A stretch of DNA of 64,000 bases, from positions 804 to 64,803 of IMG/VR virus record IMGVR_UViG_3300027856_000008, one strand, 5' to 3'. The DNA is from a virus (Duplodnaviria; Caudoviricetes). The notes below the pieces were generated by a model. The model was not told the origin of the DNA. It saw only the letters and a list, made by a program, of their open reading frames with translations, and ran no database searches. Of this stretch, positions 10,144-63,287 are shown piece by piece; the first letter of the stretch is position 1, and each line of letters starts with the position of its first letter. Made by a program: the position numbers and the translations under genes.

Positions 10144-11673
10144 ATGGCTAAAGTTAACACGTTACACCCGCTTTATAAACAGAACATAACAGCTTGGAAT
10201 AGAGTTCGTGACTGTGTTCAAGGCTCGATAGCCATTAAGGGTAAAGATACTTTGTATTTGCCTATGCCTAGTGGCATGGTTGATGCCCCACCAACAGCCT
10301 TAAATCAAACTTCTTTTGGTTCACGCGAAGAATACCCATTAAGAACAGGTGATCAGGATTTTCAACGACCAACTTGGTCTGGAACAAAAGCCTACGAGAA
10401 TTATAAAATAAGGGCTCATTTCCCTGACCTAACTAGTGATACATTGCGTGGCTTAATGGGTGTCGCTTCAAATAAAAACCCGACTTTTATCTTGCCTAGC
10501 AGAATGGAATATTTAAGAGAAAATTCAACTAATGATGGTTTAACCTTACTTCAATTATATTTTAAATTGATTGAGGACGTATTGCAGACAGGACGAATTG
10601 CTTTAGGTATCGACATTGATGTTGATACGGGGAATTTAGTCTTTCTAACTTATTCAGCCGAGAGTTTTATTAACTGGAAAAATTCTAGCAAAACTAATCT
10701 ATTCACACTCGGAGTATTTAAAGAAACAAACCCTACAAACCCTACAAACGAGGATATGTTTGATCAGTCTATGACTGAAAAGAAAAGGGTTTTATTTTTA
10801 GATGAAAACGGTATTTATACCACGGCAGTTTGGGTTGATGGTGAACAGATAGCGGATAGTTTAATTCAGCCAACCTTACAAGGCAGAGCATTTAATAAAG
10901 TGCCAATCGTGGCTATTGGCTCGACTAATCAAGATCCTGATCCAGATAAGATCCCATTACTTGGCATATCAGATGTTAGCGTACAGATTTACATGAAAAA
11001 TGCCGACCTAAATAATGCTGAATTCTTAACTTGTAACCCGACTCTTGTTTTAACTGGCGCAGACTCAAATGAGATCCCGAGTGCTATGGGTTCTACAGTT
11101 GCCCTAACGCTTGCCAATCCTCAAGCAAATGTTTTCTATACCCAAACAGATACAAGCGGTTTAAATCACTGTAAAGAGCATATAAAGGATTTAAAAGACG
11201 AGGCGCAAATGTATGGCTCTGCAATACTTGGCGATAGTGCTGGTGGTGTTGAAAGTGCCGAGGCATTGAGAGTTAAGCAGGCAAGCCGACAAGCAAGCTT
11301 AATGAGTATTGTTAGAAGTGTTTCAGAAGGGTTACAGACGGGTTTAAATTTAATTGGTGAATGGATGGGTATCGACTCCGATGAAATAACCGTAGAGACA
11401 CCAGATAGGTTCGCAGAAACACTATTAAGTGATAGCGAAAGGCAGCAACTTGTTAGCGAGTGGCAAAATGGAGCAATTTCAATGTCTATCTGGCGGCATA
11501 ACTTGCGTAAAGGTGGAATTATTCCAGACACAGTTGAAGATCAAGCGATAGAGGATGAATTTGATCAAGGCGTATCTGCAATTACAGGGGATCAGATAGA
11601 TGAATCAGAAGATAAACCAAACGTTGATCAGCAGGGAGCTAATGCCCCATCCGGATCGGAAGAAGAAACCTAG
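10144..11673 (+). CDS. Portal protein (DUF4055-type)
   Basis: HPLY..W.RVRD..G..AIK....YLP, AY..Y..RA.F and ESAEALRV; size and position fit a portal. Confidence 0.85.
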   Translation: MAKVNTLHPLYKQNITAWNRVRDCVQGSIAIKGKDTLYLPMPSGMVDAPPTALNQTSFGSREEYPLRTGDQDFQRPTWSGTKAYENYKIRAHFPDLTSDTLRGLMGVASNKNPTFILPSRMEYLRENSTNDGLTLLQLYFKLIEDVLQTGRIALGIDIDVDTGNLVFLTYSAESFINWKNSSKTNLFTLGVFKETNPTNPTNEDMFDQSMTEKKRVLFLDENGIYTTAVWVDGEQIADSLIQPTLQGRAFNKVPIVAIGSTNQDPDPDKIPLLGISDVSVQIYMKNADLNNAEFLTCNPTLVLTGADSNEIPSAMGSTVALTLANPQANVFYTQTDTSGLNHCKEHIKDLKDEAQMYGSAILGDSAGGVESAEALRVKQASRQASLMSIVRSVSEGLQTGLNLIGEWMGIDSDEITVETPDRFAETLLSDSERQQLVSEWQNGAISMSIWRHNLRKGGIIPDTVEDQAIEDEFDQGVSAITGDQIDESEDKPNVDQQGANAPSGSEEET

Positions 11674-15520: not shown

Positions 15521-15672
15521 ATGTCATTTGATAATTTGAAAATATAGACAATACTATTAAGTGAAAGATCGTTAGTTGCGCTAACGATGCCCCAAAGTTT
15601 GCGACAGAAGGGAATTTATTAATTTTTGCCAGCGGCAAGAATCCTTTTGTTATAAATTCTTTGGGGGCTAAC

Positions 15673-16815
15673 ATGGCTAACTCATATTTAACTGTATCGC
15701 AAATTGCGGCAGAATCATTAACCGTATTAGAAGATAGTCTTGTTGCTGGTAATCTTCTATATAGAGATAAAACATCAGATTTCGGTCTTGCCAAAAATGG
15801 CTATAAAGTCGGTGACACTGTTCGGGTTCGCCAAGGAACTGAATTTGCAGTAAACGATTTTACTAGCACAATCACAAAACAAGATATTCGCCAATCAGAA
15901 CGTAACATGACTATCGAGCGCCATATGGACGTTTCAGTAGGTATTGGTGCGCGTGAAATGTCTTTAGATCTTGATCACTTCTCAACCGAAGTTATTGTGC
16001 CAGCAATGGTATCAATAGCCGAAGAAATAGACACTTTCTTATTAACCAAAATTGTTCAAGCCACCAGCCTTTATGCAAGTGCTGATTTATTTGCAAGTGT
16101 GGGTGATATGGCAAACGCAAACAGAGTTGCCAATGAAGCGCAGATCCCAAAAGCGGGTCGCATTGGTTTAGTTAATTCCTCACTTGAAGCAAAACTATTA
16201 GGCTCTGATTTCTTCCATAGTGCCGATATTCGTGATGGTGAAAGTTTACAAGCTTTGCGTGATGCTCGTATGGGTCGTGTTATGGGTACAGATTGGGTAG
16301 CAAGTGTAAATATGCCAGTGGCAGGACACACTAACTCAAGCGGTACTACAACCACAGATAACACGGTTGCTACTGATAACTTGATCGGCAATTCAACTCT
16401 TGTTGTTGATTCAATCGTAGGTGGCTTTACAGCTGGTGATCGTATTCGCATTGCTGGTGTTCGCAGACCATTAATTGTTGAAACAACTGTTGCAGCAACT
16501 GGTTTAGCAATTGTATTAACTGATCCAATCACTGAGATTATTCCAGATGGGGCAGCGGTAACAGTAGAGGGCGGCAATGCCAGCGTTTTAGATTTCCAAG
16601 GCATTATCACTAACCCTAATGCTTTTGCTTTTGCGACACCCCCGCTTGAATTGCCAGCGAGTGTTGAAGCATCTGTGCAAAATGCTAACGGGTTTAGTAT
16701 TCGTGTTGTAAGAGATTATGACGTTGATACCAAATCAACAACGCTAAGTTTTGATCTATTACTTGGCGCATTAGCATATGATCCTCGTCTAGCGGTTCTA
16801 TTAGCTGATTTCTAA
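15673..16815 (+). CDS. Major capsid protein (P22 coat-like)
   Basis: MANSYLT..IA.E.L.VLE, KVGDTVRVR and SIRVVRDYD...FDLLLG; beta-rich insertion domain. Confidence 0.9.
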   Translation: MANSYLTVSQIAAESLTVLEDSLVAGNLLYRDKTSDFGLAKNGYKVGDTVRVRQGTEFAVNDFTSTITKQDIRQSERNMTIERHMDVSVGIGAREMSLDLDHFSTEVIVPAMVSIAEEIDTFLLTKIVQATSLYASADLFASVGDMANANRVANEAQIPKAGRIGLVNSSLEAKLLGSDFFHSADIRDGESLQALRDARMGRVMGTDWVASVNMPVAGHTNSSGTTTTDNTVATDNLIGNSTLVVDSIVGGFTAGDRIRIAGVRRPLIVETTVAATGLAIVLTDPITEIIPDGAAVTVEGGNASVLDFQGIITNPNAFAFATPPLELPASVEASVQNANGFSIRVVRDYDVDTKSTTLSFDLLLGALAYDPRLAVLLADF

Positions 16816-27031: not shown

Positions 27032-27072
27032 ACCGACTATAATTTAAACAAATAAATTTTTCGGTGATCGTT

Positions 27073-29637
27073 ATGGTTGATAAGGTTGGTATTGAGGTAA
27101 CAGCAAAAACCGCTGGCGCAGATGGGCCGATCAAAAAAACAAAAAAAGAGATTCAAGATCTTTGTAATACAGTAGCCACGACAGATAAAAAAGTTGATAA
27201 CTTAGAAAAAGACTTCAACAAAGATTTGCCAAATGCCCTTAAAAAATCAGAAAAACAAGCGAAGAAAACAACTAAACAAATAACCAGTTTAGGTACACAA
27301 TCAGCGTTAACGGGAAAGAGTGTTAATGGTTTATCTAGTAGCTTTAAAGGTTTAGGACTTGCGATAGTAGCGGCAGGGGCAGCGGCAGGGGTGCAGGTAT
27401 TTGTTACTGCGGCTGATAATTTCCAATCATTAGAAGCCAGAGTGAAAGATGCCACCAGATCAACAGGTGATTTCAAAGAGATTTTCCAAGATTTACAAGA
27501 TGTTTCTTTACAAACAGGAACGAGTTTAAAAGAAAATGTTAGTTTATTTCAGAGGTTATCATCAGCATCAAAAACATTAGGCGCAAGTAATAAAGAACTT
27601 ATTGGAGTAACAAAAACATTAGGTGATTTAGCTTTAATATCAGGGGCAAGCTCGGAAGAACAAGCAAACTCATTTAGGCAATTAGCGCAAGGTTTAGGTG
27701 CTGGCACTTTAAGAGCAGAAGAATTTAATTCAGTACAAGAACAAACTCCCACAGTAATACAAGCTATAGCAGATAATATAGATCGTTTTGGTGGCAGCAT
27801 TGGAAAATTCAGAGAGGAAATAAAGAAAACAGGTACACCTAGTATTGATATTTTAAGGGCATTACAAAAAGCGGCAGACGATGCCGCAGAAAGAGCCGCA
27901 GCAATACCGAAAACAGCAGCGCAAGGATTTATATCCTTATCAACTATATTGGGCAAAACAGCAAGTGAATTTGATAAGCAAATAGGTTTAACAGATAAAT
28001 TTGCCAAAAGTATGTCGGATGCCGCCAAAGCCTTAAATGATTTTTTAAAAGATAATGATAATGTAACCGATGTTATTAATGGACTTTCAAATGCTCTTCA
28101 AGTTGTTGGAGTATTATTATCAGTTACTTTAGCGGGTAAAGCTATAAAAGCAGCAAGAATAGGTTTTACGGCTTTATCAGCAGACGTAGTTAAAACCACT
28201 ATAACAGGGCAAGCTTATGGTCAGGTTATAACTAAAACAACAACACTTACAGGTGCGGCAGCGGTAGCAACTAGGGTATTTGGAACGGCATTAAGGTTTG
28301 CTGGTGGGCCATTAGGATTAATCGTTACTTTGCTTGGTTTAGCCGCAGTCGGTATGTCTGACTTTGGGGAAAAAACCAAAAGAACAGCAGCAGAAAATAT
28401 AGCGTTAGCTGACGCATTAAAAAGACGAGCAGAAGCGGCTAAAAACGCAGCGGTTCTAACGGATGCACAGAAACTTGAAATTTCAGCTAAAAGAGCGAAA
28501 GAAGCTAAGATCCAAATAGATGCTCTAAGTACAGCTTTAGAAACACTTATTCAAGCTGGTGGTGATCCTGCTGGCGAAAAGCAATTACAAGCACTTATCA
28601 AAGAACAAGAAAAATTATTAAAAGTAGAACAGGCAAGGGTTGATCAACCACAAGTACTCAAAGAAAGGGAGGAGGCGTTAGTAACAGAATTTAATAGAAT
28701 TGGTGAACTGGTAATAGCAAATGGAAATTTAAGAGAAGCACAAGCGAGATTTTCAGAGCAATTTTTAAGTGATAAAGAAAAAGAAGAACTAGCACTTAAA
28801 AGACAAGTTGATAGTTTAGCGGGTTTAGCGATTGCCGCAGGGGAAAACCCAGAAAAAGTTGCCAAAGTAAGAGCCGATGCGATAGCACAAAGCGAAGCAG
28901 CAGCAGCAGAAAAAAAGAAAACAGCAGACGCGAATCAAGTTATAGCTGATAAAAAGAAAAATGACGAAATAGCAGAAGATGAAAAAGACGCAGCAACGTC
29001 CCGTTTAGCAGCACAAGGGCAATTAGCTGGTGATCTATTAGGCATAGTTAAAACATTCGGTGCGGAAAATACAGCACTAGGAAAGGCTCTGGCATTGACG
29101 CAAATAGGTATTAATACAGCAGTTGCTTTAACAAAAGGGTTTGCAGATCTTGGGCCTATAGGTGGAGCTATAGCATCTGGTGTAACAATAGCGGCAGGGG
29201 CAGCGGCAGCGGCTCAAGTTCTGGCATCGAAAAAAGGGAATGTTTTTTCTGGTGGCAACGTTGTTCCATTTCAAAGGGGTGGTGTTGTCAGTAAACCCAC
29301 TACATTCCCCCTCAGTGGTGGCAGAACGGGTTTAATGGGTGAAGCAGGGGCAGAAGCAGTCCTCCCCCTTAAACGGGCCGCAAATGGCGATTTAGGGGTT
29401 CAGACTAATGTCGGTGGTTCTGGTGGTGGCGTAGGTGGAACAGTAATCAATATAAATAACCTATCAGGCGCAAGTGTTGACGTTAGATCCGAACAGATTG
29501 GCAATAGGGAGGTAATTAATATCGCTGTTAGTGAAGCAAGGGCGGCTGTTCAGAATGACTTTAAACGATCACTTCAAACAGGTTACGGTGATTTTGCCGA
29601 GGGTGTTCAATCTAACTTTAATGTCGAGCGCAGATAA
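27073..29637 (+). CDS. Tape measure protein
   Basis: QLAQGLGAGTLRAEEFNSVQEQ tape-measure motif; lambda-like C-terminus GLMGEAGAEAVLPLKR. Confidence 0.95.
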   Translation: MVDKVGIEVTAKTAGADGPIKKTKKEIQDLCNTVATTDKKVDNLEKDFNKDLPNALKKSEKQAKKTTKQITSLGTQSALTGKSVNGLSSSFKGLGLAIVAAGAAAGVQVFVTAADNFQSLEARVKDATRSTGDFKEIFQDLQDVSLQTGTSLKENVSLFQRLSSASKTLGASNKELIGVTKTLGDLALISGASSEEQANSFRQLAQGLGAGTLRAEEFNSVQEQTPTVIQAIADNIDRFGGSIGKFREEIKKTGTPSIDILRALQKAADDAAERAAAIPKTAAQGFISLSTILGKTASEFDKQIGLTDKFAKSMSDAAKALNDFLKDNDNVTDVINGLSNALQVVGVLLSVTLAGKAIKAARIGFTALSADVVKTTITGQAYGQVITKTTTLTGAAAVATRVFGTALRFAGGPLGLIVTLLGLAAVGMSDFGEKTKRTAAENIALADALKRRAEAAKNAAVLTDAQKLEISAKRAKEAKIQIDALSTALETLIQAGGDPAGEKQLQALIKEQEKLLKVEQARVDQPQVLKEREEALVTEFNRIGELVIANGNLREAQARFSEQFLSDKEKEELALKRQVDSLAGLAIAAGENPEKVAKVRADAIAQSEAAAAEKKKTADANQVIADKKKNDEIAEDEKDAATSRLAAQGQLAGDLLGIVKTFGAENTALGKALALTQIGINTAVALTKGFADLGPIGGAIASGVTIAAGAAAAAQVLASKKGNVFSGGNVVPFQRGGVVSKPTTFPLSGGRTGLMGEAGAEAVLPLKRAANGDLGVQTNVGGSGGGVGGTVININNLSGASVDVRSEQIGNREVINIAVSEARAAVQNDFKRSLQTGYGDFAEGVQSNFNVERR

Positions 29638-33506: not shown

Positions 33507-33938
33507 ATGGTATATACAGCCCCCTACATCAAATACATGGACATTAAATATAATTTATACGGAAATAGTGTTCGGGATGGTTTTAATTGTTGGACTTTTG
33601 CGCGTTATTATCTGAAACAAGAATACGATTTAAATATTAATGATTATATTGAATTCGAGCTAGATAATATTATCACTTCATCTGTTATTCATACGACCAG
33701 AGCTATTAAAACTCATTGCGAAAACCAAACTAAAATAGTTAGAACTTATGATCCCGCTGATGGTGACATTTGTTTTATGGGTTGTGGCTCAAGATTAACT
33801 CATATAGGCGTTATTACTTCAAATGGGGTGGTACATTGCCATAGAGGGCATTCGGGCATTGGGATGGTTATATTCACCCCATTTGAGCGTTTAAATAGTT
33901 TGTTTTCAAAAAGTGAGTTTTACACATGGCGACAATAA
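33507..33938 (+). CDS. NlpC/P60 tail assembly protein (gpK-like)
   Basis: GFNCWTF...THIGV...VVHC catalytic pattern. Confidence 0.8.
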   Translation: MVYTAPYIKYMDIKYNLYGNSVRDGFNCWTFARYYLKQEYDLNINDYIEFELDNIITSSVIHTTRAIKTHCENQTKIVRTYDPADGDICFMGCGSRLTHIGVITSNGVVHCHRGHSGIGMVIFTPFERLNSLFSKSEFYTWRQ

Positions 33939-36463
33939 TTTTTAGAAATAATTTACTTAAGCAAAACGAATACGATATTGTTGAAGTAGAGACAGGCGGA
34001 TATCTTATTGATCACTTAATGGATTATTGGATCGATAAAGCACCTAAAAATTTAGAAGTCTATGAAGGTCTGATAACCGAAGCATCTAAATTATCATTTG
34101 AACAATTATCACATTATCAAATGAAAAAGGACGATGTTATACATGCTATCTCATGCCCCGCTGATGCCGCAACGGTAGGTTTTGTGGTTCTAGGTTTGAT
34201 TATTGGGGTTCTTGGTGCTGCGTTAATACCAGAGCCAAAATTATCGCAAAGATCTTCGCCTAACCCATCGAGAACAATTAGCGGTCAGACTAATATTGCT
34301 AGGCCGAATCAACGAGTACCAGAAATATTTGGTAAAAATGTCATTTATCCTGACTTAGCGGCAAATTCCATTAGTGAATATAGAAATCAGATCCAGTATG
34401 TAACCGAATTATTAGTTGTTGGTGTTGGGTTTTACGAAGTGGATATATTAGATACATTCACGCCCACAAAAAATAACTTAAGATCTGGTACAACCTTGCT
34501 TGATGATATGGCAGAAGCAACATATGAAATTTTTGATCCTGCTGATGAAATAGTCGATTTGCTTGATGTGCGCGATATGAACGAGGTCGATGGTCAAGAG
34601 ATAGTTGGTCAAAATACGGCATCTGGAACAATAAGAAACTTGGCATCTATGCGTTGGTTAGGGAGTAGTTTTGAAGTAAGCACAGCAGATGGTAATTGGA
34701 TTGATGATCATTTTAGTGCCAGTGATCCGCTTGAAATATTAGAAGGGCCAAACATAGGTACTTTTACGTTTTTAAGTATTTCTTTTGAGCCAGAACTAGG
34801 TAAGGCAATTGTTGATGTGACGGAGTTACCAGCCGTATCTGGTACGCAGTTCAATATAGATATTTCAACAGATGCTGCGACACCTAATTTTATAGGGCCA
34901 TTAACGTTACCAACTATAGCCGAACAGATCTGGATAGATTTAAAATTGCCGAGGGGTTTATCTGCTAATGATGCGGATTCGACTGTTACTTTGACTTTTC
35001 AATTTAATCTAATTAACCAGACCACAGGGGCGGTATTGGAAACGATAAATTTCAGTCAGTTGATAACAGAAAATACTTATGACGAGTTAAACTTTACATT
35101 TAAATTTTTCGCAAGGCAGAAGTTTATAGACGAGGGAGCAACTACGATACCGAATTTAGAAGATTTTTATTCGGTGAAGATAACTAATAATACTGCGGAT
35201 AGTCCTAATTCAGCCAATCCAGACACTGTTCAATGGAGTAGGGCGGCATCGGTTACAAGAATTATTGATGAAGGTGAGCTATTCAGAACGTTCCCTGATA
35301 CGACATTGATTAGGTTGGAGACTAGGGCAACAGCTTTTGCTAGTTCGTTAAAAGAGCGACAGTTTAACGGGGTATTTACCCGCAAGTTACCTGTTTATAA
35401 TCCTATTACAAATACATTTGGTGTAACACCTGTTGCGACTCGGCAAATGATGGATGCTTTTTTGTATATGGCAACAAATGATTTTGGGGCAGGGTTCGCG
35501 TTAACCGATATTGATGGGGTCGGTATTGATGCGATACAGGATAAGTTAAATTTAATTGATATTATCGCACCTAAGACAAGAGGGAATCAGGGCGAATGTA
35601 ATCTAATTTTAAGTGAGCTTACAAGTCCAGATCAGGATTTGATCACGATTGCTAATACTTGCCGTTGCTTTGTATTTCGTGAAGGGCAGATCTTAAAATT
35701 AACTCTTGATGAAAAAGACAAAACACCTACCGCTTTATTCAATAGAAGAAATAAAACGGTTAATGAGACAAAAACTTTTGAGTTTAGCCAATCAACAACA
35801 CCCGATGGTATTAAATTAACGTTTGTAGACGAGACAGAGAACTACATTGAGCGCATTTATGAGATACCCATAAATAGAACAGCTAAACAGCCCTTAGAAT
35901 TGCAGATAGACGGTATCACGAATTGGGAACAGGCATATAGAAGGGGTCGTTTTGAATTTAATCGACTCCAACTTCAAAATATACAGGCTAGTATCGAAAC
36001 AACTTATGATGGGCGTGTAATTGGTCTTAATGATTTGATCTTGAATGTTGATGCTATTGGTATCAAGCTCGATGATGGTAACGTTGTTGACGCAATAGGA
36101 ACGACTTTAATTATTAGTAACGAATTTGTTTTTGCTGCCAGCACATATACGATTACTTTAAGAGATCCACTAGGTACTGAAATATTTCAAACATCAGTGA
36201 TAGATGGAGCAGGAGCGAACAGGGTTATTATTGGTAGTTTGCCACCGTTTGAAATTGTTCCCGCTGGAACGAATAATGAAGTTGGAACTTTATATTCAAT
36301 AATCGATGATACCGATTCTAATGTCGATAGATACCTTGTAACTGGAATTACACCAAGTGATGATTTGACAAAAATCACGTTAACAAATTTCGATGAAGGT
36401 ATTTATGCCAATGATTCACCGTTTGCGGTACCCGATAAAAATACAGAATTAAATATCAACTAA
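33926..36463 (+). CDS. Tail tip/central tail protein (gpI-gpJ-like)
   Basis: N.ARPNQRVPEIFG...YPDL and W.QAYRRG; size and position. Confidence 0.8.
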   Translation: MATIIFRNNLLKQNEYDIVEVETGGYLIDHLMDYWIDKAPKNLEVYEGLITEASKLSFEQLSHYQMKKDDVIHAISCPADAATVGFVVLGLIIGVLGAALIPEPKLSQRSSPNPSRTISGQTNIARPNQRVPEIFGKNVIYPDLAANSISEYRNQIQYVTELLVVGVGFYEVDILDTFTPTKNNLRSGTTLLDDMAEATYEIFDPADEIVDLLDVRDMNEVDGQEIVGQNTASGTIRNLASMRWLGSSFEVSTADGNWIDDHFSASDPLEILEGPNIGTFTFLSISFEPELGKAIVDVTELPAVSGTQFNIDISTDAATPNFIGPLTLPTIAEQIWIDLKLPRGLSANDADSTVTLTFQFNLINQTTGAVLETINFSQLITENTYDELNFTFKFFARQKFIDEGATTIPNLEDFYSVKITNNTADSPNSANPDTVQWSRAASVTRIIDEGELFRTFPDTTLIRLETRATAFASSLKERQFNGVFTRKLPVYNPITNTFGVTPVATRQMMDAFLYMATNDFGAGFALTDIDGVGIDAIQDKLNLIDIIAPKTRGNQGECNLILSELTSPDQDLITIANTCRCFVFREGQILKLTLDEKDKTPTALFNRRNKTVNETKTFEFSQSTTPDGIKLTFVDETENYIERIYEIPINRTAKQPLELQIDGITNWEQAYRRGRFEFNRLQLQNIQASIETTYDGRVIGLNDLILNVDAIGIKLDDGNVVDAIGTTLIISNEFVFAASTYTITLRDPLGTEIFQTSVIDGAGANRVIIGSLPPFEIVPAGTNNEVGTLYSIIDDTDSNVDRYLVTGITPSDDLTKITLTNFDEGIYANDSPFAVPDKNTELNIN

Positions 36464-41562: not shown

Positions 41563-42129
41563 ATGACGAAAGTTAGGGCTTTAAAAACCAGAAAACAGAT
41601 AAATGATGTTGGTGATTTACTGAATAAACATTATGGCAGGCATTTTTTGCAGATGTGGAGATTTGCTGTCAATGTTGGTTTAAGAATGGGTGATGTTCTT
41701 TCAATTTCCATGGAACAGGCAAAGAAGGGGTTAAAAGATGGTCACATAGAAATAAAGGAACAGAAAAAGAAAAAGTACAATAGATTTGATCTAAACATTG
41801 TTGCCAAGCAAATAATAGAAGAAAGGGTGAAAGAGAATAAAACTGATCTCTGGCTTTTCCAATCTCATGGGAATAATGCCAAGGCTATGGAAAAGCCCAT
41901 AAGCAGAAATGCTGTTTATTTGGCATTGAGGGAAGTCGGGCAAATCTATGGTGTTAAGCTTGGAACACACTCAGCAAGAAAAAGCAGGGCGCGTCTAATG
42001 TATGAATCAGGTGAAACGCTAGAATCAATAGCAAGTGTTTTAAACCATGATGATATAAAAGATACTATCAAATATATTGATATTACTCAGGACGAAAAAG
42101 ACAGAACATATCACGAATATGTGATTTAA
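41563..42129 (+). CDS. Short tyrosine recombinase (catalytic domain only, resolvase-like)
   Basis: R (GLRMGD), K, HxxR (THSARK), LNH and Y (TIKYI); 188 aa with no arm-binding domain. Confidence 0.9.
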   Translation: MTKVRALKTRKQINDVGDLLNKHYGRHFLQMWRFAVNVGLRMGDVLSISMEQAKKGLKDGHIEIKEQKKKKYNRFDLNIVAKQIIEERVKENKTDLWLFQSHGNNAKAMEKPISRNAVYLALREVGQIYGVKLGTHSARKSRARLMYESGETLESIASVLNHDDIKDTIKYIDITQDEKDRTYHEYVI

Positions 42130-42138
42130 GGGCTATTA

Positions 42139-42588
42139 ATGAAATATTATGTTTATAAAATTACTTGTAATGCTGGTGGAAATTATAAAGGCATGGAATA
42201 TATAGGGGTTAAGAAACATATAAACCCACAGAAAGATCCTTACATGGGTGGTGGTGAGCTATTAAACTATTTTAAAGATAAATTAGGCATTGAATATTTT
42301 ACAAAAGAAATCTTGTATATATTGGATTCATCAGCAGAAGCTTATGAAATCGAAAAGTCATTAGTTGATGAATTTTATATAGGCAGAGAAGATACATTCA
42401 ACCTATGCTTGGGTGGCTTGCAAAACCGAAGATATGACTTTGCATGTGAGTGGAAACAAGAACTAAAACAATATTTAAGCGATATAACATTTGCAAAATC
42501 TATGGTGCTTAAGGAAACAAGGGCAAAAGAATTAAGAGCGATAATTCAACAAAGAGTAAATCAAACTTATATTGATATTGAATTATAG
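42139..42588 (+). CDS. GIY-YIG (Seg-like) homing endonuclease
   Basis: YVYKIT...YIG...DPYMGGG...FTKEIL...E...N pattern. Confidence 0.75.
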   Translation: MKYYVYKITCNAGGNYKGMEYIGVKKHINPQKDPYMGGGELLNYFKDKLGIEYFTKEILYILDSSAEAYEIEKSLVDEFYIGREDTFNLCLGGLQNRRYDFACEWKQELKQYLSDITFAKSMVLKETRAKELRAIIQQRVNQTYIDIEL

Positions 42589-50656: not shown

Positions 50657-51883
50657 ATGAAAGCAACTACCATAGACAGAAAATTAAGAAGTTTAAAAAC
50701 TGGTGAGCGTTTCACTTTACCTGCAACACAGCTAAGTAACGAAGAATATCATAAGGTTAAGGCAGTATCGAGCAGCCGATTAAAAGATCTAATGAAAGTT
50801 CATCCAGCGTATGTTTATGCTAAGTATTTCAAACAACAGATCCCCCGCAAGGTTACCGAGGCTTTTTTAATTGGTGGCGCGACTCATAAGCTTATTTTAG
50901 AAACTAGATCTTTCGGTAAAGAATATATCGTTTTACCAGAAAATAAAAAGCGCCCCACAGAAAAAGGCTTTAATGATTTAAATGGCTATGTCGAAAAGGC
51001 TAATGAAGCAAAAGCAAACGAGCTTTATTGGTTTGAGTTAGATCACCATAACGATAATGTTGAATTGGCAGGGGAGTTAGCAGGGCATAAAAAAGTAACT
51101 CCCGCACAAGTAAAAATAGTTAGCGAAGCCGAGGATCTTAAAAAGCAATTAGAAGCAGAAGATCGGGAGCCAAAAAAGGCAGAGCAAAACCGTTTAAATA
51201 AAGCAGAAGAAATAAAAGACAATATTAGCTGGTGGAATAGATATACGGCAAGCATCCGTATACCAGAAGAAGGTAAAAAAAGACCAACAGCATCTTCAAC
51301 AAAGGCTATTGAAAAAGGATTAGAAGCAAAAGAAACAATTAATTTTTGGTCTGATTTTGATAAGCAGGCAAAGGGTAAAGAGTGTTTAACAAGGGAACAG
51401 TATAACGAGGTTGATGGATATAGAAACGCAGTACGAGCGCACCCACAAGCTAACAATCTTTTGAAGGGTGGAGATCCAGAAGTTTCTACTTTTTGGCGTG
51501 ACGAAGAAACAGGACTTTTGTGTAAAGCCAGAGCCGATTACAAACAGGGTGATATTTTACTCGATGTGAAAAGTACCGCAGATAACAGCCCCGATGCCTT
51601 TGCTAGACAATGTGCGAACTTGCTTTATAACTTACAACAGGCAATGTATATGGACGGTTTCAGAGCCACAAACTTTGCTTTTGTAGCTGTAGAAAAAAGC
51701 AAGGACTGTCCATTTGTTGAGGTCTATACGATGGACGATGATTTTTTTGATATTGGCAATATAATTTATAGGGATGCTTTAACCCTATATAAAAAGTGCT
51801 TAGATACAGGCGTTTGGAATTCATATAATGATGGAATCGGAACATTAAAAGCACCTAATTGGTTTTCATATAAATATAAATAA
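50657..51883 (+). CDS. RecE-like PD-(D/E)xK exonuclease (DUF3799-type)
   Basis: SNEEYH..AVSSS.LK, G.ATHKLILE, EVS.FW.D.ETG..CKARAD..LDVKS and Y.LQ.AMY; upstream of recT. Confidence 0.85.
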   Translation: MKATTIDRKLRSLKTGERFTLPATQLSNEEYHKVKAVSSSRLKDLMKVHPAYVYAKYFKQQIPRKVTEAFLIGGATHKLILETRSFGKEYIVLPENKKRPTEKGFNDLNGYVEKANEAKANELYWFELDHHNDNVELAGELAGHKKVTPAQVKIVSEAEDLKKQLEAEDREPKKAEQNRLNKAEEIKDNISWWNRYTASIRIPEEGKKRPTASSTKAIEKGLEAKETINFWSDFDKQAKGKECLTREQYNEVDGYRNAVRAHPQANNLLKGGDPEVSTFWRDEETGLLCKARADYKQGDILLDVKSTADNSPDAFARQCANLLYNLQQAMYMDGFRATNFAFVAVEKSKDCPFVEVYTMDDDFFDIGNIIYRDALTLYKKCLDTGVWNSYNDGIGTLKAPNWFSYKYK

Positions 51884-51960: not shown

Positions 51961-52839
51961 ATGAATACAGAATTAACTACAAAGACAACTTTTGATTTAA
52001 CACCAACGACTTTACAAGAAGCAATGGATCAGGCTCACATGCTTGCTGGTTCAGCCATAATTCCTAAGCAGTTTCAGAATAAACCTCAGGATATTTTAGT
52101 TGCTGTTCAAATGGGCTTAGAAGTTGGTTTAAAGCCTTTACAGGCACTAAAAAATATAGCCGTTATAAATGGAACTCCCACAATTTGGGGGGATGCTGCC
52201 ATTGCTATTGTTAGAAAATCCCCCTTATGCGAATCAATAGTTGAAACGATTGATTATAGAAAAATAGGGGATCGGGATATTTTAGTTGCGACCTGTACCG
52301 TGAAGCGTAGAGGTGAAGAACCACAAACAAGAATATTCGACCAGATAGACGCAGAGACAGCAAAACTATGGGGTCGTAATGTTTGGGCTAGTTATCCGAA
52401 ACGTATGCTTCAAATGCGAGCGAGGGGCTTTGCTTTGCGTGATGTATTTCCCGATGTATTAGGTGGCTTGGATATAGCCGAGGAACAACAGGACAAGGAA
52501 GAACGAGACATAACAAATCGTGGTACCGAACAAACTCAAGATCAAAGAAAATCTTCATTGAATGATTTGGCATCTGGAAAGAAACCTAAACCGAAGAAAC
52601 AGCCAAAACCTGATCCGGTGATCACAGTTGATCAAGATGGAACTACATTCACACAAAATGAAGCGAATGAATATTTAAACGAGTCGATTTGTGAAATGCG
52701 AAATTGTTATAGTTACCCTGATTTACAGAAAATCTTTGGTCCGAGTTGGTCTAAGTTAAAACAAACTGGATATAAAGATCTTGCTGAAAAATTAGAGTCA
52801 GAATATCAAGTTTTAAAAGCTGACTTATTGAACGAATAA
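51961..52839 (+). CDS. recT: RecT-family ssDNA annealing protein
   Basis: GLEVGLKPLQALKNIAVING.PTIWGD and W..YPKRMLQMRARGFALRDVFPDVLGGL. Confidence 0.9.
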   Translation: MNTELTTKTTFDLTPTTLQEAMDQAHMLAGSAIIPKQFQNKPQDILVAVQMGLEVGLKPLQALKNIAVINGTPTIWGDAAIAIVRKSPLCESIVETIDYRKIGDRDILVATCTVKRRGEEPQTRIFDQIDAETAKLWGRNVWASYPKRMLQMRARGFALRDVFPDVLGGLDIAEEQQDKEERDITNRGTEQTQDQRKSSLNDLASGKKPKPKKQPKPDPVITVDQDGTTFTQNEANEYLNESICEMRNCYSYPDLQKIFGPSWSKLKQTGYKDLAEKLESEYQVLKADLLNE

Positions 52840-52863: not shown

Positions 52864-52890
52864 AAAGCCCATTTTAAAGTGGGCTTTTTT
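52864..52890 (+). terminator. Rho-independent terminator (left boundary of the hfa-like cassette)
   Basis: AAAGCCCA...TGGGCTTTTTT. Confidence 0.85.
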
Positions 52891-52962
52891 ATGTCAAAAA
52901 TTTGACAATAGGAGAAACTATACGAAAATTAGGTTTGTCTGCTTTGTGCTATGGGTTAGCAC

Positions 52963-53373
52963 ATGAAATATATTATTTACTTGCTATTACTTATTGTAAT
53001 GGCATATGTACCGCAAGCTATTTCTAATGGTTGGTTAGAAAATAGATCTTATCAATTCACATCTACCGATGCACGTTACCTGTTTATCCTTCAAGCACAG
53101 CAAAAAGAAATTTCCCAAGGTGGTGGATATAATTCTACAGTTAATTTTAATGGCGATATTGGTCAGTTTGGGGATCAATATAACGCTGATCATCAAATCT
53201 TTAATAATTCTACTTCAATCGGCAATTTAAGTTCTGTTGATGTTTCTGGCGATAATAATTCTGTTAATGGTAACCAAGACAATAATCAGGGTTCTAATAC
53301 TTCGATAGGTCAAACTTTAGATCCTTTCGTTGGCAAAATTGGTGATTCAATTTCATTTGGGAACGGGGGCTAA
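52963..53373 (+). CDS. HfaA/curlin-like secreted Asn/Gly/Ser-rich protein
   Basis: Signal peptide; NNSTSIGNLSSVDVSGDNNSVNGNQDNNQG resembles the HfaA C-terminal amyloid-like repeat. Confidence 0.65.
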   Translation: MKYIIYLLLLIVMAYVPQAISNGWLENRSYQFTSTDARYLFILQAQQKEISQGGGYNSTVNFNGDIGQFGDQYNADHQIFNNSTSIGNLSSVDVSGDNNSVNGNQDNNQGSNTSIGQTLDPFVGKIGDSISFGNGG

Positions 53374-53375
53374 CG

Positions 53376-54299
53376 ATGCAAAGCAGACACTTAATTCATG
53401 CCCTCGTTTCCACCCTTATTTTAGCAACGGGCTGTAATACTATAACGTCAGATATGCTTGATGGTGTTAATAGTGACGCAGCATACAAGAAAACCTATGT
53501 TAGTAAATATTCTCAGCCACCAGCATTAGTTGATACACCTTTCACGGAGGTTTTACAGTGCTTAGGATCGGACGCTGAAACTGGTGTTTCTGGTGCGAAT
53601 TATTTAAATAAATTTAGGTATTCGATTAGCGTTGGAAAGATCGCAGACTTAACAGGCAAGATGAATATTAATTCTAGTATTGGCTCACCTGTTAGTAATG
53701 GCGCTCAGAACATGCTTACAAGCGCGATAATGTTATCTAATGGCTTTAGGCTGATTAATAGAACTGATACAGCCATAAGTGATTTAGAACGGCATTTAAC
53801 AAGTAAGAAGCTTATAAAAGAATATGACCAGAACGATGCTCAAAGGTTGAGATCATTAAGTGCTGGCGAGGTAACGGGGAGTGATTATTATATTTACGGC
53901 TCGGTTACATCATTTGATTACAATATCGCTAGTGGTGGCTCAGAGGCTATTGTGGCTGGAATAGGTTTAAGAGGTCGTTATTTTGTGGCATCGGCAACGA
54001 TAGATTTGTTCTTGGTGAATACTAGAAGCACAGAAATTTTAAAGTCAGTCTCATTACATAAACAGCTTGTTGGTCGTGAAGTAAAAGCCAACCTGTTTAG
54101 TTTTGATTGGCTTGATAATGAATTCCTCGATTTAAGTTCGGGAATAAAAGAAAGTGAAGCCGCAGGGATCGCATTACGCGCCATGCTTGAAAAATCAGCT
54201 ATAGAATTTACTGGTTTTTTATATGATTGGTCGAATGTGCCTGATCGCTGTAAATTTTTATATGCGTCAGCAAATTTAAAAAGAGTGATTGAAGAATGA
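53376..54299 (+). CDS. hfaB: CsgG/HfaB-family outer-membrane secretion lipoprotein
   Basis: Lipobox ATGC; ISVGKIADLTGK, F.LINR, SDYYIYGSVTSFDYNIASGG, IDL.LVNTRS.EI and KQLVGREV.A. Confidence 0.85.
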   Translation: MQSRHLIHALVSTLILATGCNTITSDMLDGVNSDAAYKKTYVSKYSQPPALVDTPFTEVLQCLGSDAETGVSGANYLNKFRYSISVGKIADLTGKMNINSSIGSPVSNGAQNMLTSAIMLSNGFRLINRTDTAISDLERHLTSKKLIKEYDQNDAQRLRSLSAGEVTGSDYYIYGSVTSFDYNIASGGSEAIVAGIGLRGRYFVASATIDLFLVNTRSTEILKSVSLHKQLVGREVKANLFSFDWLDNEFLDLSSGIKESEAAGIALRAMLEKSAIEFTGFLYDWSNVPDRCKFLYASANLKRVIEE

Positions 54300-54793
54300 A
54301 AAAATTAATTTTATTGGGTTTATTTTTGGGTGCGTTTGGTGCTAGTGCGGCAAATGTTAATCTTGGTCAAGCAAACGCAAGTGGTGTTTTAGATTCCGTT
54401 GCGCTGGTTGGTGCGGTTGCTGTTGGTGATGATCTATTAAACACAGGCGCATCTATTGGCAATACTGGCGCTATTACTATTGATGCCACCGCAGCAGTTG
54501 GTTCACTTCAAGCAAACGCAGTTGGTTTTCAGTCTGCCGATGCTCATGTTCGTTGGGCTGGTGTTGATGGTGTTATTGAAAATACAGCGGCAAGTATTGG
54601 TAATAACTTAACGGTTGATATTGACGAGTGCGGTGCGTGTAGTGACTCTGCGAGTGTGGTTAACTCAGCGCAGTTAAATGCGACTTTGAGCAATACCGCA
54701 TTTGCTAGTGTTGGTCTAGCTGGTTTAACTGGCTCGTTGACTAATACAGCGGCAGCAATCGGAAACTCAGCTACAATAACAATTACAAATTAA
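54296..54793 (+). CDS. HfaD/curlin-like secreted beta-repeat protein
   Basis: Signal peptide ending ASA; three NT.A(S/A)IGN.....I repeats; ends AAAIGNSATITITN. Confidence 0.65.
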   Translation: MKKLILLGLFLGAFGASAANVNLGQANASGVLDSVALVGAVAVGDDLLNTGASIGNTGAITIDATAAVGSLQANAVGFQSADAHVRWAGVDGVIENTAASIGNNLTVDIDECGACSDSASVVNSAQLNATLSNTAFASVGLAGLTGSLTNTAAAIGNSATITITN

Positions 54794-54809
54794 TTTGTGT
54801 TTGAGTTCT

Positions 54810-54840
54810 AAAAAAGCCAGTTTAATAGCTGGCTTTTTTT
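54810..54840 (+). terminator. Rho-independent terminator (right boundary of the hfa-like cassette)
   Basis: AAAAAAGCCAG...CTGGCTTTTTTT. Confidence 0.85.
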
Positions 54841-54895
54841 ATGGTTTTAGATAATTGGTCTAATATTAATGAGCGATAAATAAAAGGGTTTGACT

Positions 54896-55348
54896 ATGAC
54901 AAGACCTACACTAAGTATCAATAAAGCGGCTTTGAAGAAAAGCCGAGCAGCGAAACAGCAATTAGAAATAAGCACTAGAACACCATCTAAAGCAAAGAAA
55001 ATGAGGCGTAAGCAGCAAGAATTAATGATAGAGTTTTTAGGTCGGCATTATCCCCTTGTTTTTAATCTTGATGAACCATTACCGCTTAAGATAGGCATAT
55101 TAAAAGATTTGATCCGCATCACTATTTGCTATGGGTTTAGCGCAATGGACACCCGAAGGGCAATATATTTCTGGACTAACCGATTCGAGTATCATGCCTG
55201 TGTAGCAAATGGCGAGTATAGATTTGATCTTGATGGAGCGCACCATAGCTTAATAACTGATGAACATAAAAGCCATTCTAAAGTGACAGTTGCTAATACT
55301 TTGAGAAATAAAAAGAAAAAGCAGCAAGGAAGTAAGAAACGGAAGTAA
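54896..55348 (+). CDS. ProQ/FinO-family RNA chaperone
   Basis: YPLVF..PLPLKIGI..DL, A...WT....Y and RFDLDG......I..EH. Confidence 0.9.
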   Translation: MTRPTLSINKAALKKSRAAKQQLEISTRTPSKAKKMRRKQQELMIEFLGRHYPLVFNLDEPLPLKIGILKDLIRITICYGFSAMDTRRAIYFWTNRFEYHACVANGEYRFDLDGAHHSLITDEHKSHSKVTVANTLRNKKKKQQGSKKRK

Positions 55349-60346: not shown

Positions 60347-60783
60347 ATGATTTCAGTTTAGTTTTACAATCAGTATGTTTGAAAACACACACAGTCGGTA
60401 AGTTATTTATTTGTCATGTGGGGAAAGATCCAGAATTCTTTTGTTTTACTCTTGAGCGTCCGTGGCTCGGCAATAAGGCGCATATCTCTTGCATCCCATA
60501 TGGTGAATATGTTTTGAAAAGCCACAAAAGCCCGAAGTTTGGCAGATGCTATTATTTACAATCTCGTATCTCTGGTGTTGTGGGTTTAAATTATGGAGCT
60601 AGAACGCACATTCTAATCCATCCAGCGAACAGGGCTAGTGAATTGCATGGGTGTATTGCTTTGGGTTCAATGGACGGCATTTTAAGTGGAGAATTCGCTA
60701 TTTTGAATAGTAGAAAAACCGTTAATAAGTTACATGAATTGCTTGGCGGTAGAGATACGCTGATAACAATAATGGAACGTTAA
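60343..60783 (+). CDS. DUF5675-family protein, candidate endolysin
   Basis: T.G.L, CFTLERPW..N...SCIP.G.Y, R.HILIHPAN...ELHGCI.LG and NSR. Confidence 0.7.
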   Translation: MNDFSLVLQSVCLKTHTVGKLFICHVGKDPEFFCFTLERPWLGNKAHISCIPYGEYVLKSHKSPKFGRCYYLQSRISGVVGLNYGARTHILIHPANRASELHGCIALGSMDGILSGEFAILNSRKTVNKLHELLGGRDTLITIMER

Positions 60784-61565
60784 TGAAAAATCCAGAATTC
60801 CATACCTATAAAATTGTAGATATTAATTCTTTGATCCCGTATGTGACTAATGCAAGAACGCATGAACAATGGCAGATAGCACAAATCAGGGGAAGTATAA
60901 AAGAGTTTGGATTTACGAACCCTGTTCTTATTGAGCCAGACGGTTCGATAATTGCGGGGCATGGTCGAGTTCTGGCAGCATTAGATCTAGGTTTTGAAGA
61001 ATTACCCGCTATAGAAATAAAAGGGCTCACTAAGGCTAAAAAGGCCAAATTAGTTATAGCGGATAATCAATTTGCTCTTAATGCTGGTTGGGATCTTGGT
61101 ATTTTAAAATCAGAGTTAGAATTTATACAAGAAGCTGGCGAGGACATTGGTGAACTGGGTTTCGATGATAAATTTTTAAATGATTTATTTGAACGTGGTG
61201 ACGATGATAGTTCGTATACCAAAAAAATAGATGCCCCGTTATATGAACCTACAGGCGAAAAGCCAGATATTATAAAAGTCTATAATACAGAAAAAACAGA
61301 TCAGCTACTTAGTGAAATAAAAGGTTCAGACTTGCCAGATGGTGTAAGGGATTTCTTGATCGCTGCCGCATACCGACATACTAAATTTAATTATGAACAG
61401 ATTGCAGAATTTTATGCTCAATCAAATGCGGATATTCAAGAACTAATGGAGAGTAGCGCACTTGTTATAATTGATTTCGATAGAGCTATTGCAGATGGTT
61501 ATGTTCGATTAAATGATGCGGTCACAGAGCTATACCAGCGTGAAAATGGCGAAGCTGATGAATGA
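60783..61565 (+). CDS. ParB N-terminal (ParBc) domain protein
   Basis: LIPY..NARTH...QI..SIKEFGFTNPVLI...IIAGHGR..AA and IADN.....AGWD. Confidence 0.85.
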   Translation: MKNPEFHTYKIVDINSLIPYVTNARTHEQWQIAQIRGSIKEFGFTNPVLIEPDGSIIAGHGRVLAALDLGFEELPAIEIKGLTKAKKAKLVIADNQFALNAGWDLGILKSELEFIQEAGEDIGELGFDDKFLNDLFERGDDDSSYTKKIDAPLYEPTGEKPDIIKVYNTEKTDQLLSEIKGSDLPDGVRDFLIAAAYRHTKFNYEQIAEFYAQSNADIQELMESSALVIIDFDRAIADGYVRLNDAVTELYQRENGEADE

Positions 61566-62433
61566 TGGTTTCGCTGTTTTTATATTAACCAATAGAAGGT
61601 CTGAAAAGGTTTATACATATAAGACTTTAAAGCGTGGAGGGTATACGGGGGCCGTATATTTACTTGTTGATGATGAAGATCCAGAAAAAGATAATTACTT
61701 GAAAAAATATAAAGACGAAGTGATCATTTTTAATAAACAAGATGCTGTAAAAATGACGGATTCAGGTAATAACTTTGGCAAAACAAATTCTGTTGTCTTT
61801 GCTAGAAATATAAACTTTATTATTGCCAAAGAAATGGGGCTTAAATACTTTTTACAGTTAGATGATGATTACAGCGATTTTGGATATGTGACCGATGGGA
61901 AAGGTAATTACGTCACAAAAAATACCCGCACTAAAAAGTTAGACGATATTTTTAAACACACCTTAAAATTTCTTGAAGATTCGGGCGCAAGCTCAGTTGC
62001 TTTTAGTCAGGGAGGCGATTTTATTGGTGGCAAAAAAGGTAATGGAGTCAGAAAAGCCGTAGAGGGTAAATTCTTAAGAAAAGCCATGAACAGTTTTTTT
62101 ATTTCTACAGCAAGACCTTTTAAATTTGTCGGCATGATGAACGATGATGTTAATACGTTTATATCACTTAGCAAAACAGGCAATCTCTTTTGTACTTTTT
62201 TACCTTTTAGGCTCTGGCAAAGACCAACACAATCAAACGAAGGTGGGTTAACGGAAATGTATCTGGAAATGGGAACATACGTTAAATCATTCTATACCGT
62301 AATGTATGAACCATCATGTACGACAGTCGTTGAAATGGGGTCTGTAAATAGACGCTTGCACCATAAAACATCTTGGAAATATGCCGCGCCAGTAATACTA
62401 GATGAAAAGTTTAAAAAGGTGTCTAAATGTTGA
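61558..62433 (+). CDS. GT-A fold glycosyltransferase (TET-associated/GREB1-like type)
   Basis: FILT.RR, ARN, FLQLDDDY (DxD), MNDDV and Q...Q.N.GG.TE.Y. Confidence 0.7.
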   Translation: MNDGFAVFILTNRRSEKVYTYKTLKRGGYTGAVYLLVDDEDPEKDNYLKKYKDEVIIFNKQDAVKMTDSGNNFGKTNSVVFARNINFIIAKEMGLKYFLQLDDDYSDFGYVTDGKGNYVTKNTRTKKLDDIFKHTLKFLEDSGASSVAFSQGGDFIGGKKGNGVRKAVEGKFLRKAMNSFFISTARPFKFVGMMNDDVNTFISLSKTGNLFCTFLPFRLWQRPTQSNEGGLTEMYLEMGTYVKSFYTVMYEPSCTTVVEMGSVNRRLHHKTSWKYAAPVILDEKFKKVSKC

Positions 62434-63287
62434 ATGTCTTGGTAACTGGTGGCGCAGGGTTTATTGGTAGCAACTTATGCAAAATACTTGTTGAGAATAA
62501 TTACAAGGTCACATCACTTGATAATTACTCGACAGGGTTGGTAGCAAATCATATAGATGGTGTTGAATATATTAATTATGATTGCTGCGATATAGGTCTG
62601 CTTTCACCAAAGTTTGATACGATATTTCATCTAGGAGAATACGCAAGGGTCGAGTCGAGTTTTACCGATATAGATTTAGTTTTTGAAAAGAATTTAAGTA
62701 ATCTATATCAAGTATTGAAATTCACTAAAAACTGTTCAGCTAAATTAATCTATGCGGGATCTAGCACTAAGTTTGCCAAATACTGTAATGGTGATATTGA
62801 ATCACCATATGCGTTTATTAAAACAAAATGCACTGAGATAGTAGGGCAGTATTCAAAGTGGGCAGGGATTAATTACGCAATCACATATTTTTATAATGTC
62901 TACGGCCCAAACGAGATAGGTCGGGGTAAATATGCGACAGTTGTTGAGAAGTTTTTAACACTTTTCGATGATGGGGCAACGTCTGTTCCGGTGACATTGC
63001 CAGGTTTACAAGAGCGAAATTTTACGCATGTGCTTGATATTGTTGAAGGATTAATTTTAGTTGCGGAAAAAGGGCAGGGCGATAATTTCTGTATTGGATC
63101 AGATGAAAGATTATCCATTATTAAGCTGGCGAATCTTATTGGCTTGAGTCCTGACCTTATGCCAGAAAAAATAGGTAATAGGGTCAGCGCAAGGCTTGAT
63201 ACTTATAATCTAAGCCGACTTGGTTGGGTATGTAAGTTATCAATAAGGGATTATATAAATAAAAGAATTACAATAAAAAAAGGTTGA
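62427..63287 (+). CDS. NAD-dependent nucleotide-sugar epimerase/dehydratase
   Basis: VTGGAGFIGSNL, YAGSS, PYAFIK (YxxxK), FYNVYGP and RNFTHV.DIV. Confidence 0.9.
   Translation: MLNVLVTGGAGFIGSNLCKILVENNYKVTSLDNYSTGLVANHIDGVEYINYDCCDIGLLSPKFDTIFHLGEYARVESSFTDIDLVFEKNLSNLYQVLKFTKNCSAKLIYAGSSTKFAKYCNGDIESPYAFIKTKCTEIVGQYSKWAGINYAITYFYNVYGPNEIGRGKYATVVEKFLTLFDDGATSVPVTLPGLQERNFTHVLDIVEGLILVAEKGQGDNFCIGSDERLSIIKLANLIGLSPDLMPEKIGNRVSARLDTYNLSRLGWVCKLSIRDYINKRITIKKG

Follow-up and report, generated by a model that had tools for sequence, protein, structure and literature searches.

A compact Hfa/CsgG-type gene cassette, with a putative pore and two candidate cargo proteins, in a marine siphovirus-like phage

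The window analyzed here is a 64,000-nucleotide stretch of viral DNA (Duplodnaviria; Caudoviricetes; positions 804 to 64,803 of IMG/VR record IMGVR_UViG_3300027856_000008) that contains three small adjoining genes, designated p1, p2 and p3. Together they form a ~1.9 kb cassette whose gene order matches the canonical hfaA-hfaB-hfaD locus of Caulobacter, as a first-pass annotation of the sequence had proposed. We suggest that a marine tailed phage carries in this cassette a self-contained unit for secretion and assembly of the Hfa type (CsgG family, 'type VIII-like'), transcribed autonomously, and we place the probability of this interpretation at about 0.62. The middle gene encodes a lipoprotein that belongs to the HfaB branch of the CsgG family, p3 encodes a protein of HfaD-type repeats, and p1 occupies the hfaA position. 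The evidence supports a description of the cassette as a compact, diverged, phage-borne Hfa/CsgG-type variant that is not unique among phages but is undescribed within the literature that we reached. What makes it unusual, judging by sequence, is the pairing of a putative phage CsgG-type pore with candidate cargo.

The three open reading frames (ORFs) are tightly coupled and enclosed by two strong terminators (Table 1), as originally noted. The stop codon of p1 is followed after 2 nt by the start of p2, the end of p2 shares 4 nt (ATGA) with the start of p3, and none of 200 shuffled sequences was as stable as the downstream hairpin. The best sigma-70-like promoter candidate of the region lies between the upstream terminator and p1, a position that is suggestive only. 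The peptide motifs on which the original assignment had been based are all present: STSIGN in p1, ISVGKIADLTGK and SDYYIYGSVTSFDYN in p2, and three copies of NTxA(S/A)IGN in p3. Signals for Sec export and lipidation, here and below, were read by eye from the N-termini.

The identification of the middle gene as CsgG/HfaB-like was borne out by several comparisons. The p2 protein passes the Pfam CsgG model (PF03783; 79.5 bits versus a cut-off of 20.8, E 2.8e-22, residues 81-277), and it scores 160.3 bits (5.2e-47) against the NCBIfam HfaB model (NF037935), compared with 46 bits for the curli CsgG model. CsgG was the only protein recovered from the PDB, both by phmmer with p2 (6.1e-11) and by a profile of 33 HfaB-like sequences (8e-14). 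An AlphaFold2 (AF2) model of p2, with a predicted local distance difference test score (pLDDT) of 70.7 and a predicted template modeling score (pTM) of 0.66, returned CsgG for all of its top ten Foldseek matches in the PDB (E 1.6e-13 to 1.2e-10; target-normalized template modeling score, TM, 0.49-0.60); the predicted fold of p2 is thus that of CsgG. Only three proteins in a library of predicted viral structures matched this model at E <= 0.001, the best of which was a CsgG from an uncultured phage. The model monomer contains two long beta-hairpins, at residues 186-215 and 221-256, and these align with the regions of CsgG that form its membrane hairpins. Near the N-terminus is the lipobox LILATGC, in which Cys20 is followed by Asn and is invariant in four of four close relatives. 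By analogy with CsgG, p2 may form a nonameric beta-barrel pore in the outer membrane.

The p3 protein comprises a predicted Sec-type signal peptide and three repeats of ~46-53 amino acids (aa), which are mutually 40-42% identical and carry NTGASIGN, NTAASIGN and NTAAAIGN, one each. A word-based search recovered p3 itself only. A full HMMER search gave 12 proteins, one of which (P0006, 166 aa) is 48% identical to p3; the other matches are proteins of 267-2212 aa composed of repeats ending in TAAAIGNS, and the p3 repeats align with the repeats of HfaD-like proteins of 267-589 aa. Ten of the 11 non-self relatives were scanned with the NCBIfam HfaD model (NF037936), which matched nine of them at 5.6e-5 (P0006) to 3.3e-26, all under its 100-bit cut-off, and gave no match for P0010. 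Moreover, a non-circular hidden Markov model (HMM), constructed from 19 bacterial ORFs of ~200 aa located beside hfaA/hfaB, identified p3 (1.9e-9) as its sole match at E <= 10 among the 279 window ORFs of at least 40 aa that served for such specificity tests. A language-model look-up for p3 gave HfaD clusters of PF27277 (0.89), which is a lead only. These data place p3 among the HfaD-type repeat proteins.

Structural comparisons for p3 gave weaker signals. The sole PDB match of the HfaD-like profile was a CsgA fibril, at a weak E of 0.047. The predicted p3 structure consists of beta strands throughout, four to each repeat, but is of low confidence (pLDDT 52); in Foldseek its only match at E <= 0.001 was the functional amyloid FapC (3.6e-5), followed by CsgA (0.09), with TM values of at most 0.31. 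As weak leads, these matches hint that p3 may be an amyloid-like beta-solenoid. A separate feature of this protein is a CxxC pair (CGAC, positions 54620-54640) that interrupts the second repeat and has a counterpart (CGRC) in P0006; it could be a site for disulfide or thiol cross-linking.

The p1 protein is rich in Asn (12.5%), Gly (12.5%), Ser (11%) and Gln (8.8%). Its only close relative, P0018 (132 aa, 65% identity), shows an unambiguous signal peptide. In the database, the p1 gene is called from Met13, which leaves out the signal; the alignment to P0018 favors the longer start, with a signal peptide. Phmmer with p1 against the ORFs from 24 bacterial loci containing hfaB matched the ORF located just upstream of hfaB, best in two gammaproteobacterial metagenome-assembled genomes (3.7e-9 and 2.3e-6) and then in Caulobacterales HfaA (2e-3 to 0.3). 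Eleven of these upstream ORFs, each recognized by the NCBIfam HfaA model (NF037934), have a consensus core similar to STSIGNLSSVDVSGDNNSV in p1. An hhalign comparison of p1 plus P0018 with these 11 true HfaA sequences gave a probability of 81% (E 1.2e-5, 80 columns), and an HMM of the same 11 matched p1 alone among the window ORFs (3e-5). Language-model look-ups for p1 (0.91, 0.89 and 0.87) gave curlin-repeat and HfaA clusters, again as leads only. Pfam assigned no family to p1 or p3 at E <= 1, a result that is uninformative since true HfaA and HfaD are also blank in the Pfam copy used. We therefore regard the homology of p1 to HfaA as moderately supported, and the original view that both flanking genes are HfaA/HfaD-like holds well for p3, through its relatives, and to that moderate degree for p1.

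We also examined the bacterial and phage loci containing HfaB-like genes. A motif, W-x-F-x-[TS]...[KR]-x-GG[FY][FY], was found in nine of 2,121 ORFs across all loci, every one of them directly upstream of an HfaB-like gene; these ORFs derive from gammaproteobacterial, betaproteobacterial, unclassified and metagenome loci and from three jumbo-phage loci (Table 1). Each HfaB-like gene examined from outside the Caulobacterales, or from a jumbo phage, has a small secreted ORF with this motif upstream. This partner family appears to be unnamed so far. The p1 protein aligns with it and carries the variant YQFTS...SQGGGY. An hhalign comparison of the partner family with the jumbo-phage ORFs gave 88%, part of the match being the signal peptide, and CcrColossus gp241 gave 8% against the HfaA profile. 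A tree of HfaB-like proteins (80 rows, constructed by a quick method without the duplicate window locus L001 and the canonical HfaB of G001) grouped p2 with P0002 and P0003 in a long-branched clade that joins the gammaproteobacterial, betaproteobacterial and jumbo-phage sequences with 92% support in the Shimodaira-Hasegawa-like approximate likelihood-ratio test (SH-aLRT), at a node that is not starred and carries a long-branch warning.

Two further arrangements were noted among the bacterial loci. Several Caulobacter and Asticcacaulis loci (L019, 1494-5041; also L007 and others) represent a second hfa-like locus besides canonical hfaABD, with a short HfaD-like gene of ~200 aa, hfaA and two tandem hfaB genes that both score over the equivalog cut-off; Caulobacter vibrioides OR37 likewise has a second locus of short HfaD-like gene, hfaA, hfaB and hfaB. 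Two gammaproteobacterial loci (L013, 64-3207; L018, 71-3097) contain ORFs of ~1,000 aa just upstream of the p1-like ORF, with recurring ...A-x-(A/G)-N-... units. These large repeat proteins may be giant analogues of HfaD; the HfaD-like HMMs did not match them.

The data establish the gene structure, the family and predicted fold of p2, the repeat architecture and family of p3, the gene order, the linkage to the phage and the recurrence in seawater, while export, pore formation, co-assembly, expression timing and benefit to the phage are inferred. In Caulobacter, HfaB is a CsgG-like lipoprotein required for the stability and surface localization of HfaA and HfaD, and the latter two form mutually dependent multimers resistant to sodium dodecyl sulfate and heat (PMC6707917; bioRxiv 10.1101/2022.07.20.500906). 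All three phage proteins, as read from their N-termini, would cross the inner membrane by Sec. The p2 protein would then be lipidated at Cys20, sorted to the outer membrane and oligomerized into a CsgG-like beta-barrel pore, through which the HfaA-like p1 and HfaD-like p3 would pass to the cell surface. By analogy with Caulobacter HfaA and HfaD, p1 and p3 could stabilize each other and assemble on the outer membrane into stable multimers of amyloid-like character; a predicted complex of the two scored 0.27 relative to a mark of 0.32, which argues neither for nor against binding. As the cassette resembles machinery that exports and anchors amyloid-like surface fibers, the phage is likely to alter the surface of the cell that it infects. 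An infected or lysogenic cell would gain a new proteinaceous surface layer, the likeliest effect of which would be that cells adhere to particles or to one another, and the second likeliest that receptors are covered. The most complete form of this proposal, in which the virus encodes an entire amyloid-fiber export system (a pore and two subunits) and coats the infected or lysogenic marine cell to cause sticking to particles or to neighboring host cells ('sibling capture') or to hide receptors, is offered tentatively, at odds well below even.

Several observations weigh against an Hfa-type secretion unit. The p2 score of 160.3 bits is under the 300-bit equivalog cut-off of the HfaB model, on which true Caulobacter HfaB proteins reach 405-438 bits and gammaproteobacterial and jumbo-phage relatives 207-237 bits; p2, which is ~30-36% identical to bacterial HfaB, should therefore be called HfaB-like and not an HfaB orthologue. 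Its branch in the tree is very long (2.27 changes per column). Relative to Escherichia coli CsgG, whose constriction-loop residues are Tyr/Asn/Phe, the corresponding loop of p2 is 2 residues shorter and has Ser-Ile in place of Asn-Phe. Neither flanking protein is matched by its own NCBIfam model at E <= 1 (HfaA for p1, HfaD for p3). The profile match of p1 to HfaA fell from 81% to 3% once gammaproteobacterial relatives were added, and phmmer with canonical HfaD found no match among the window ORFs. The p3 protein also falls short of the full HfaD architecture, with 165 aa and 3 repeats as compared with 374 model positions, and its fold matches, given the low pLDDT and TM values, amount to a weak lead and not to a fold assignment. 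With respect to expression, promoter-like sites are not in excess in the region (10 found versus 9.2 expected from shuffles). The first-pass annotation had also taken AACTATAC, upstream of the cassette, as a hint of late or stationary-phase expression; the window has a single copy of this motif, and at least one copy turns up in 92 of 100 shuffled sequences, so that it is not above chance and is uninformative on timing. Finally, the window contains no holdfast polysaccharide genes.

This last result bears also on a different explanation, that the cassette is a true holdfast anchor: a host that makes a holdfast-like polar polysaccharide would receive additional or replacement anchors from the phage, and its cells would stay glued or be released. 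Among named families, the Caulobacterales anchor is indeed nearest to each of the three proteins, the hosts of the other phages that carry hfaB-like genes are holdfast-forming Caulobacter and Brevundimonas, and hfa mutants shed their holdfast (PMC6707917; PMC6372794). The window, however, contains no hfs-type genes, p1 has the variant N-terminal motif of the non-Caulobacterales partner family, and p2 groups, without strong support, with gammaproteobacterial, betaproteobacterial and jumbo-phage sequences outside the Caulobacterales clade. In addition, Caulobacterales are high in G+C content, far from the 36% GC of this phage and from the G+C content at third codon positions (GC3) of the cassette genes, which is 0.23-0.31. 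We consider a holdfast anchor unlikely.

Slightly less likely again is an explanation centered on the pore, with p2 providing a channel through the outer membrane that times lysis or allows leakage or uptake, as has been suggested for the CsgG/CsgF pores of Melnitz and pelagimyophages, and p1 and/or p3 serving as plugs or adaptors. The p1-family motif lies near the mature N-terminus and is conserved in every member; it might be a docking element for the pore, like that of CsgF. No lysis cassette was located in the window, where no systematic search for one was made, and the published phage CsgGF pores, which lack substrates, have been proposed as lysis regulators (PMC9004378). Conversely, a p1-family profile searched against the PDB to E <= 10 gave only chance-level matches, with no CsgF chain among them. 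In addition, p3 clearly belongs to the HfaD-type repeat proteins, an HfaA-like IGN core is present in p1, and their counterparts are exported cargo in Caulobacter; the cassette is also situated amid early recombination and replication genes, with its own terminators, and not in a late or lysis block.

That the cassette belongs to this phage is evident from other assemblies. In four other seawater runs (which bear four study codes but may stem from one campaign), contigs at least 99% identical to the window bridge both cassette junctions and span recT-p1-p2 and p2-p3-ProQ (Table 1), and consequently the arrangement is not an assembly chimera. The GC3 of the cassette genes is close to that of the phage flanks (0.28-0.35), which speaks against recent import from a high-GC genome. 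A diverged relative retains intact homologues of p1, p2 and p3 at 65%, 70% and 48% identity, each on one 5,785-b contig. No relatives of the cassette were recovered from the virus collection with p2 or with the p2 alignment, blastn with the cassette gave no match among GenBank phages, and a p2-like gene at 1e-20 was present in none of 400 other sampled Gammaproteobacteria. Although the record is a metagenome assembly and has no close phage relative in the virus collection, the notion of passenger DNA, whether bacterial DNA mis-assembled onto the phage or a decaying, functionless remnant, is very improbable, being largely excluded by the bridging contigs and at odds with the matching GC3 and with three coupled ORFs that are intact here and in the relative.

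The source record is a linear viral sequence of 64,803 b, ~80% complete by estimate, and the window is nearly the whole of it. A single strand holds all large ORFs, and no tRNA genes were found in the window. Matches to PHROG families name the structural and recombination genes (Table 1), with 30 window ORFs outside the trio scanned for families. This gene set fits a siphovirus-like phage; there was no sheath gene among the scanned ORFs, which are a subset of those in the window, and no lysis gene was located among them. RecE and RecT genes upstream of the cassette and a ProQ/FinO gene downstream place it in the recombination/replication region and not in the structural block. The phage-borne ProQ/FinO protein, encoded directly after the cassette terminator, was noted in passing. 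The portal protein matches those of cultured phages with mixed hosts, at identities that do not exceed 30.5%; the major head protein has no relative in the virus collection, and a search of that collection with RecT gave two loci that share RecE/RecT alone with the window.

Other genes of the window were noted in passing. At 41563-42588 (+), a 188-aa ORF has the catalytic domain only of a tyrosine recombinase (PF00589, 1.2e-16), and an HNH homing-endonuclease-like ORF (phrog_314) lies immediately 3' of it. A radical-SAM / Fe-S oxidoreductase-like ORF at 8155-8985 (+) lies after the terminase region and before the portal gene. Three genes at 60783-63287 (+), respectively ParB-like nuclease or methyltransferase-like, glucosyltransferase-like (phrog_842) and nucleotide-sugar epimerase-like (phrog_540), could serve in DNA or surface sugar modification.

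Table 1. Positions of the cassette, of surrounding phage genes and of related features in other sequences (dG, folding free energy).
Feature	Position	Strand	Remarks
Upstream intrinsic terminator	52864-52887	+	closes recE-recT unit; 10-bp stem, 4-nt loop, T run; dG -12.7 kcal/mol, z -3.84
Promoter candidate, sigma-70-like	52902-52929	+	TTGACA, 16 nt, GAAAAT; 10/12 consensus matches, best of region
p1	52963-53373	+	136 aa; N/G/S/Q-rich, predicted secreted, hfaA position
p2	53376-54299	+	307 aa; CsgG-family lipoprotein, HfaB branch, putative secretion pore
p3	54296-54793	+	165 aa; predicted secreted, three HfaD-type repeats (mini-HfaD)
Downstream intrinsic terminator	54810-54839	+	closes cassette; 13-bp stem, 4-nt loop, T run; dG -15.9, z -4.53
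Bridging contig X2	52643-53706
Bridging contig X3	54034-55135
Bridging contig X4	52730-53132 and 54613-54949
Terminase large subunit	2252-3496		PHROG match
Portal	10144-11673		PHROG match
Head morphogenesis protein	11736-13703		PHROG match
Major head protein	15661-16815		PHROG match
Tape measure	27064-29637		PHROG match
J-like tail protein	33926-36463		PHROG match
RecE-like exonuclease	50657-51883		PHROG match
RecT	51961-52839		PHROG match
ProQ/FinO-domain RNA-chaperone-like protein	54890-55348	+	Pfam PF04352, 5.7e-21; directly after cassette terminator
Motif ORF, locus L013	3303-3929
Motif ORF, locus L018	3278-3910
Motif ORF, locus L027	1217-1882
Motif ORF, locus L009	3005-3916
Motif ORF, locus L043	388-1050
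Motif ORF, locus L044	4087-4734
Motif ORFs, loci L002-L004	about 2299-2998
Jumbo-phage set, CcrColossus	gp241-243
Jumbo-phage set, CcrPW	gp250-252
Jumbo-phage set, vB_BpoS-Domovoi and relatives

Compared with Caulobacter hfaA-hfaB-hfaD, the cassette has the same gene order, the same translational coupling of A and B, and the same placement of a CsgG-like lipoprotein between two Sec-type proteins with a (T/S)xAIGN core. In the canonical locus of C. vibrioides OR37, hfaA and hfaB overlap, and HfaB and HfaD score 438 and 441 bits on their respective models. The phage version differs in the low score and long branch of p2, in the three-repeat p3, in the N-terminal domain of p1, which is of the gammaproteobacterial, betaproteobacterial and jumbo-phage type, and in its setting, a 36% GC marine phage with no holdfast polysaccharide genes in view. 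An HfaD reduced in this way to three repeats could serve well as a model for studying how such anchors are assembled. With E. coli curli the cassette shares the CsgG family and predicted fold of p2 and a repeat-built candidate cargo with abundant Q, N, G, A and S, whereas equivalents of csgE and csgF and a Pfam match to the Curlin repeat were not found, and the constriction-loop residues are not conserved in p2. Curlin repeats are also shorter than the repeats of p3.

The nearest parallels among phages are found in jumbo phages. A tblastn search with p2 against 50,697 phage records gave 10 records, namely jumbo phages of Brevundimonas (five) and of Caulobacter (two, with two accessions each) and one unannotated 1.5-kb Salmonella record. 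The jumbo-phage sets (Table 1) likewise consist of a small secreted ORF (~165 aa), an HfaB-like lipoprotein and an HfaD-like repeat protein, followed by a terminator, and the upstream ORF shares its N-terminal motif family with p1. They differ from the cassette in that their genomes are 280-357 kb and their hosts high-GC and holdfast-forming, their HfaB proteins are 32-35% identical to p2, and their HfaD-like proteins are of 309-331 aa. Phmmer with p1 or p3 found no direct match among the jumbo-phage ORFs. The NCBIfam HfaD model matched the downstream ORF of CcrColossus (1.5e-5) but not that of Domovoi; a profile containing p3 matched the downstream ORFs of CcrColossus, CcrPW and Domovoi (3e-27, 5e-28 and 4e-12), and the bacterial-only HMM matched the first two (8e-4 and 2e-3) and not Domovoi. 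GenBank names only the middle gene of these sets, with the flanking genes listed as hypothetical or as lipoprotein, and by a term search the main text of the phiCbK genomics paper does not mention CsgG, curli or hfa (PMC3556154). The existence of these comparable sets means that an hfa-like set is not unique to this phage. The original impression that no complete hfaABD-like set had been described in such a phage is upheld insofar as we found no such description in the literature (paper supplements, which may list phage curli genes, lay outside its scope), but comparable sets have been sitting unremarked in GenBank. Hfa-type systems therefore extend beyond the holdfast-forming Caulobacterales and are present in two unrelated phage groups.

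A second parallel is provided by the pelagimyophages and the Methylophilales phage Melnitz, which carry CsgG/CsgF pores without subunit genes, and for which a role in aggregation or in lysis timing has been proposed (PMC9004378). A CsgG-family outer-membrane pore, putative in the phage described here, is encoded by all of these marine phages; in the pelagimyophages and Melnitz it has no counterpart among the curli genes of the host or does not depend on them (PMC9004378). The latter are myophages, whereas the phage of this window is siphovirus-like, and they carry csgF and no fiber subunit, whereas the cassette offers two candidates for cargo and no detected CsgF. The pores of these abundant marine phages are puzzling because no cargo genes lie alongside. 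The cassette, with a putative CsgG-family pore and two candidate cargo proteins, makes the question of what phage pores do testable through three small genes. Should the proposed export of self-encoded amyloid fibers prove true, it would be the first case of a CsgG-type pore of a phage accompanied by its cargo and would offer a functional answer to the presence of curli-type pores in marine phages, with a logic that extends to the jumbo phages of Caulobacter.

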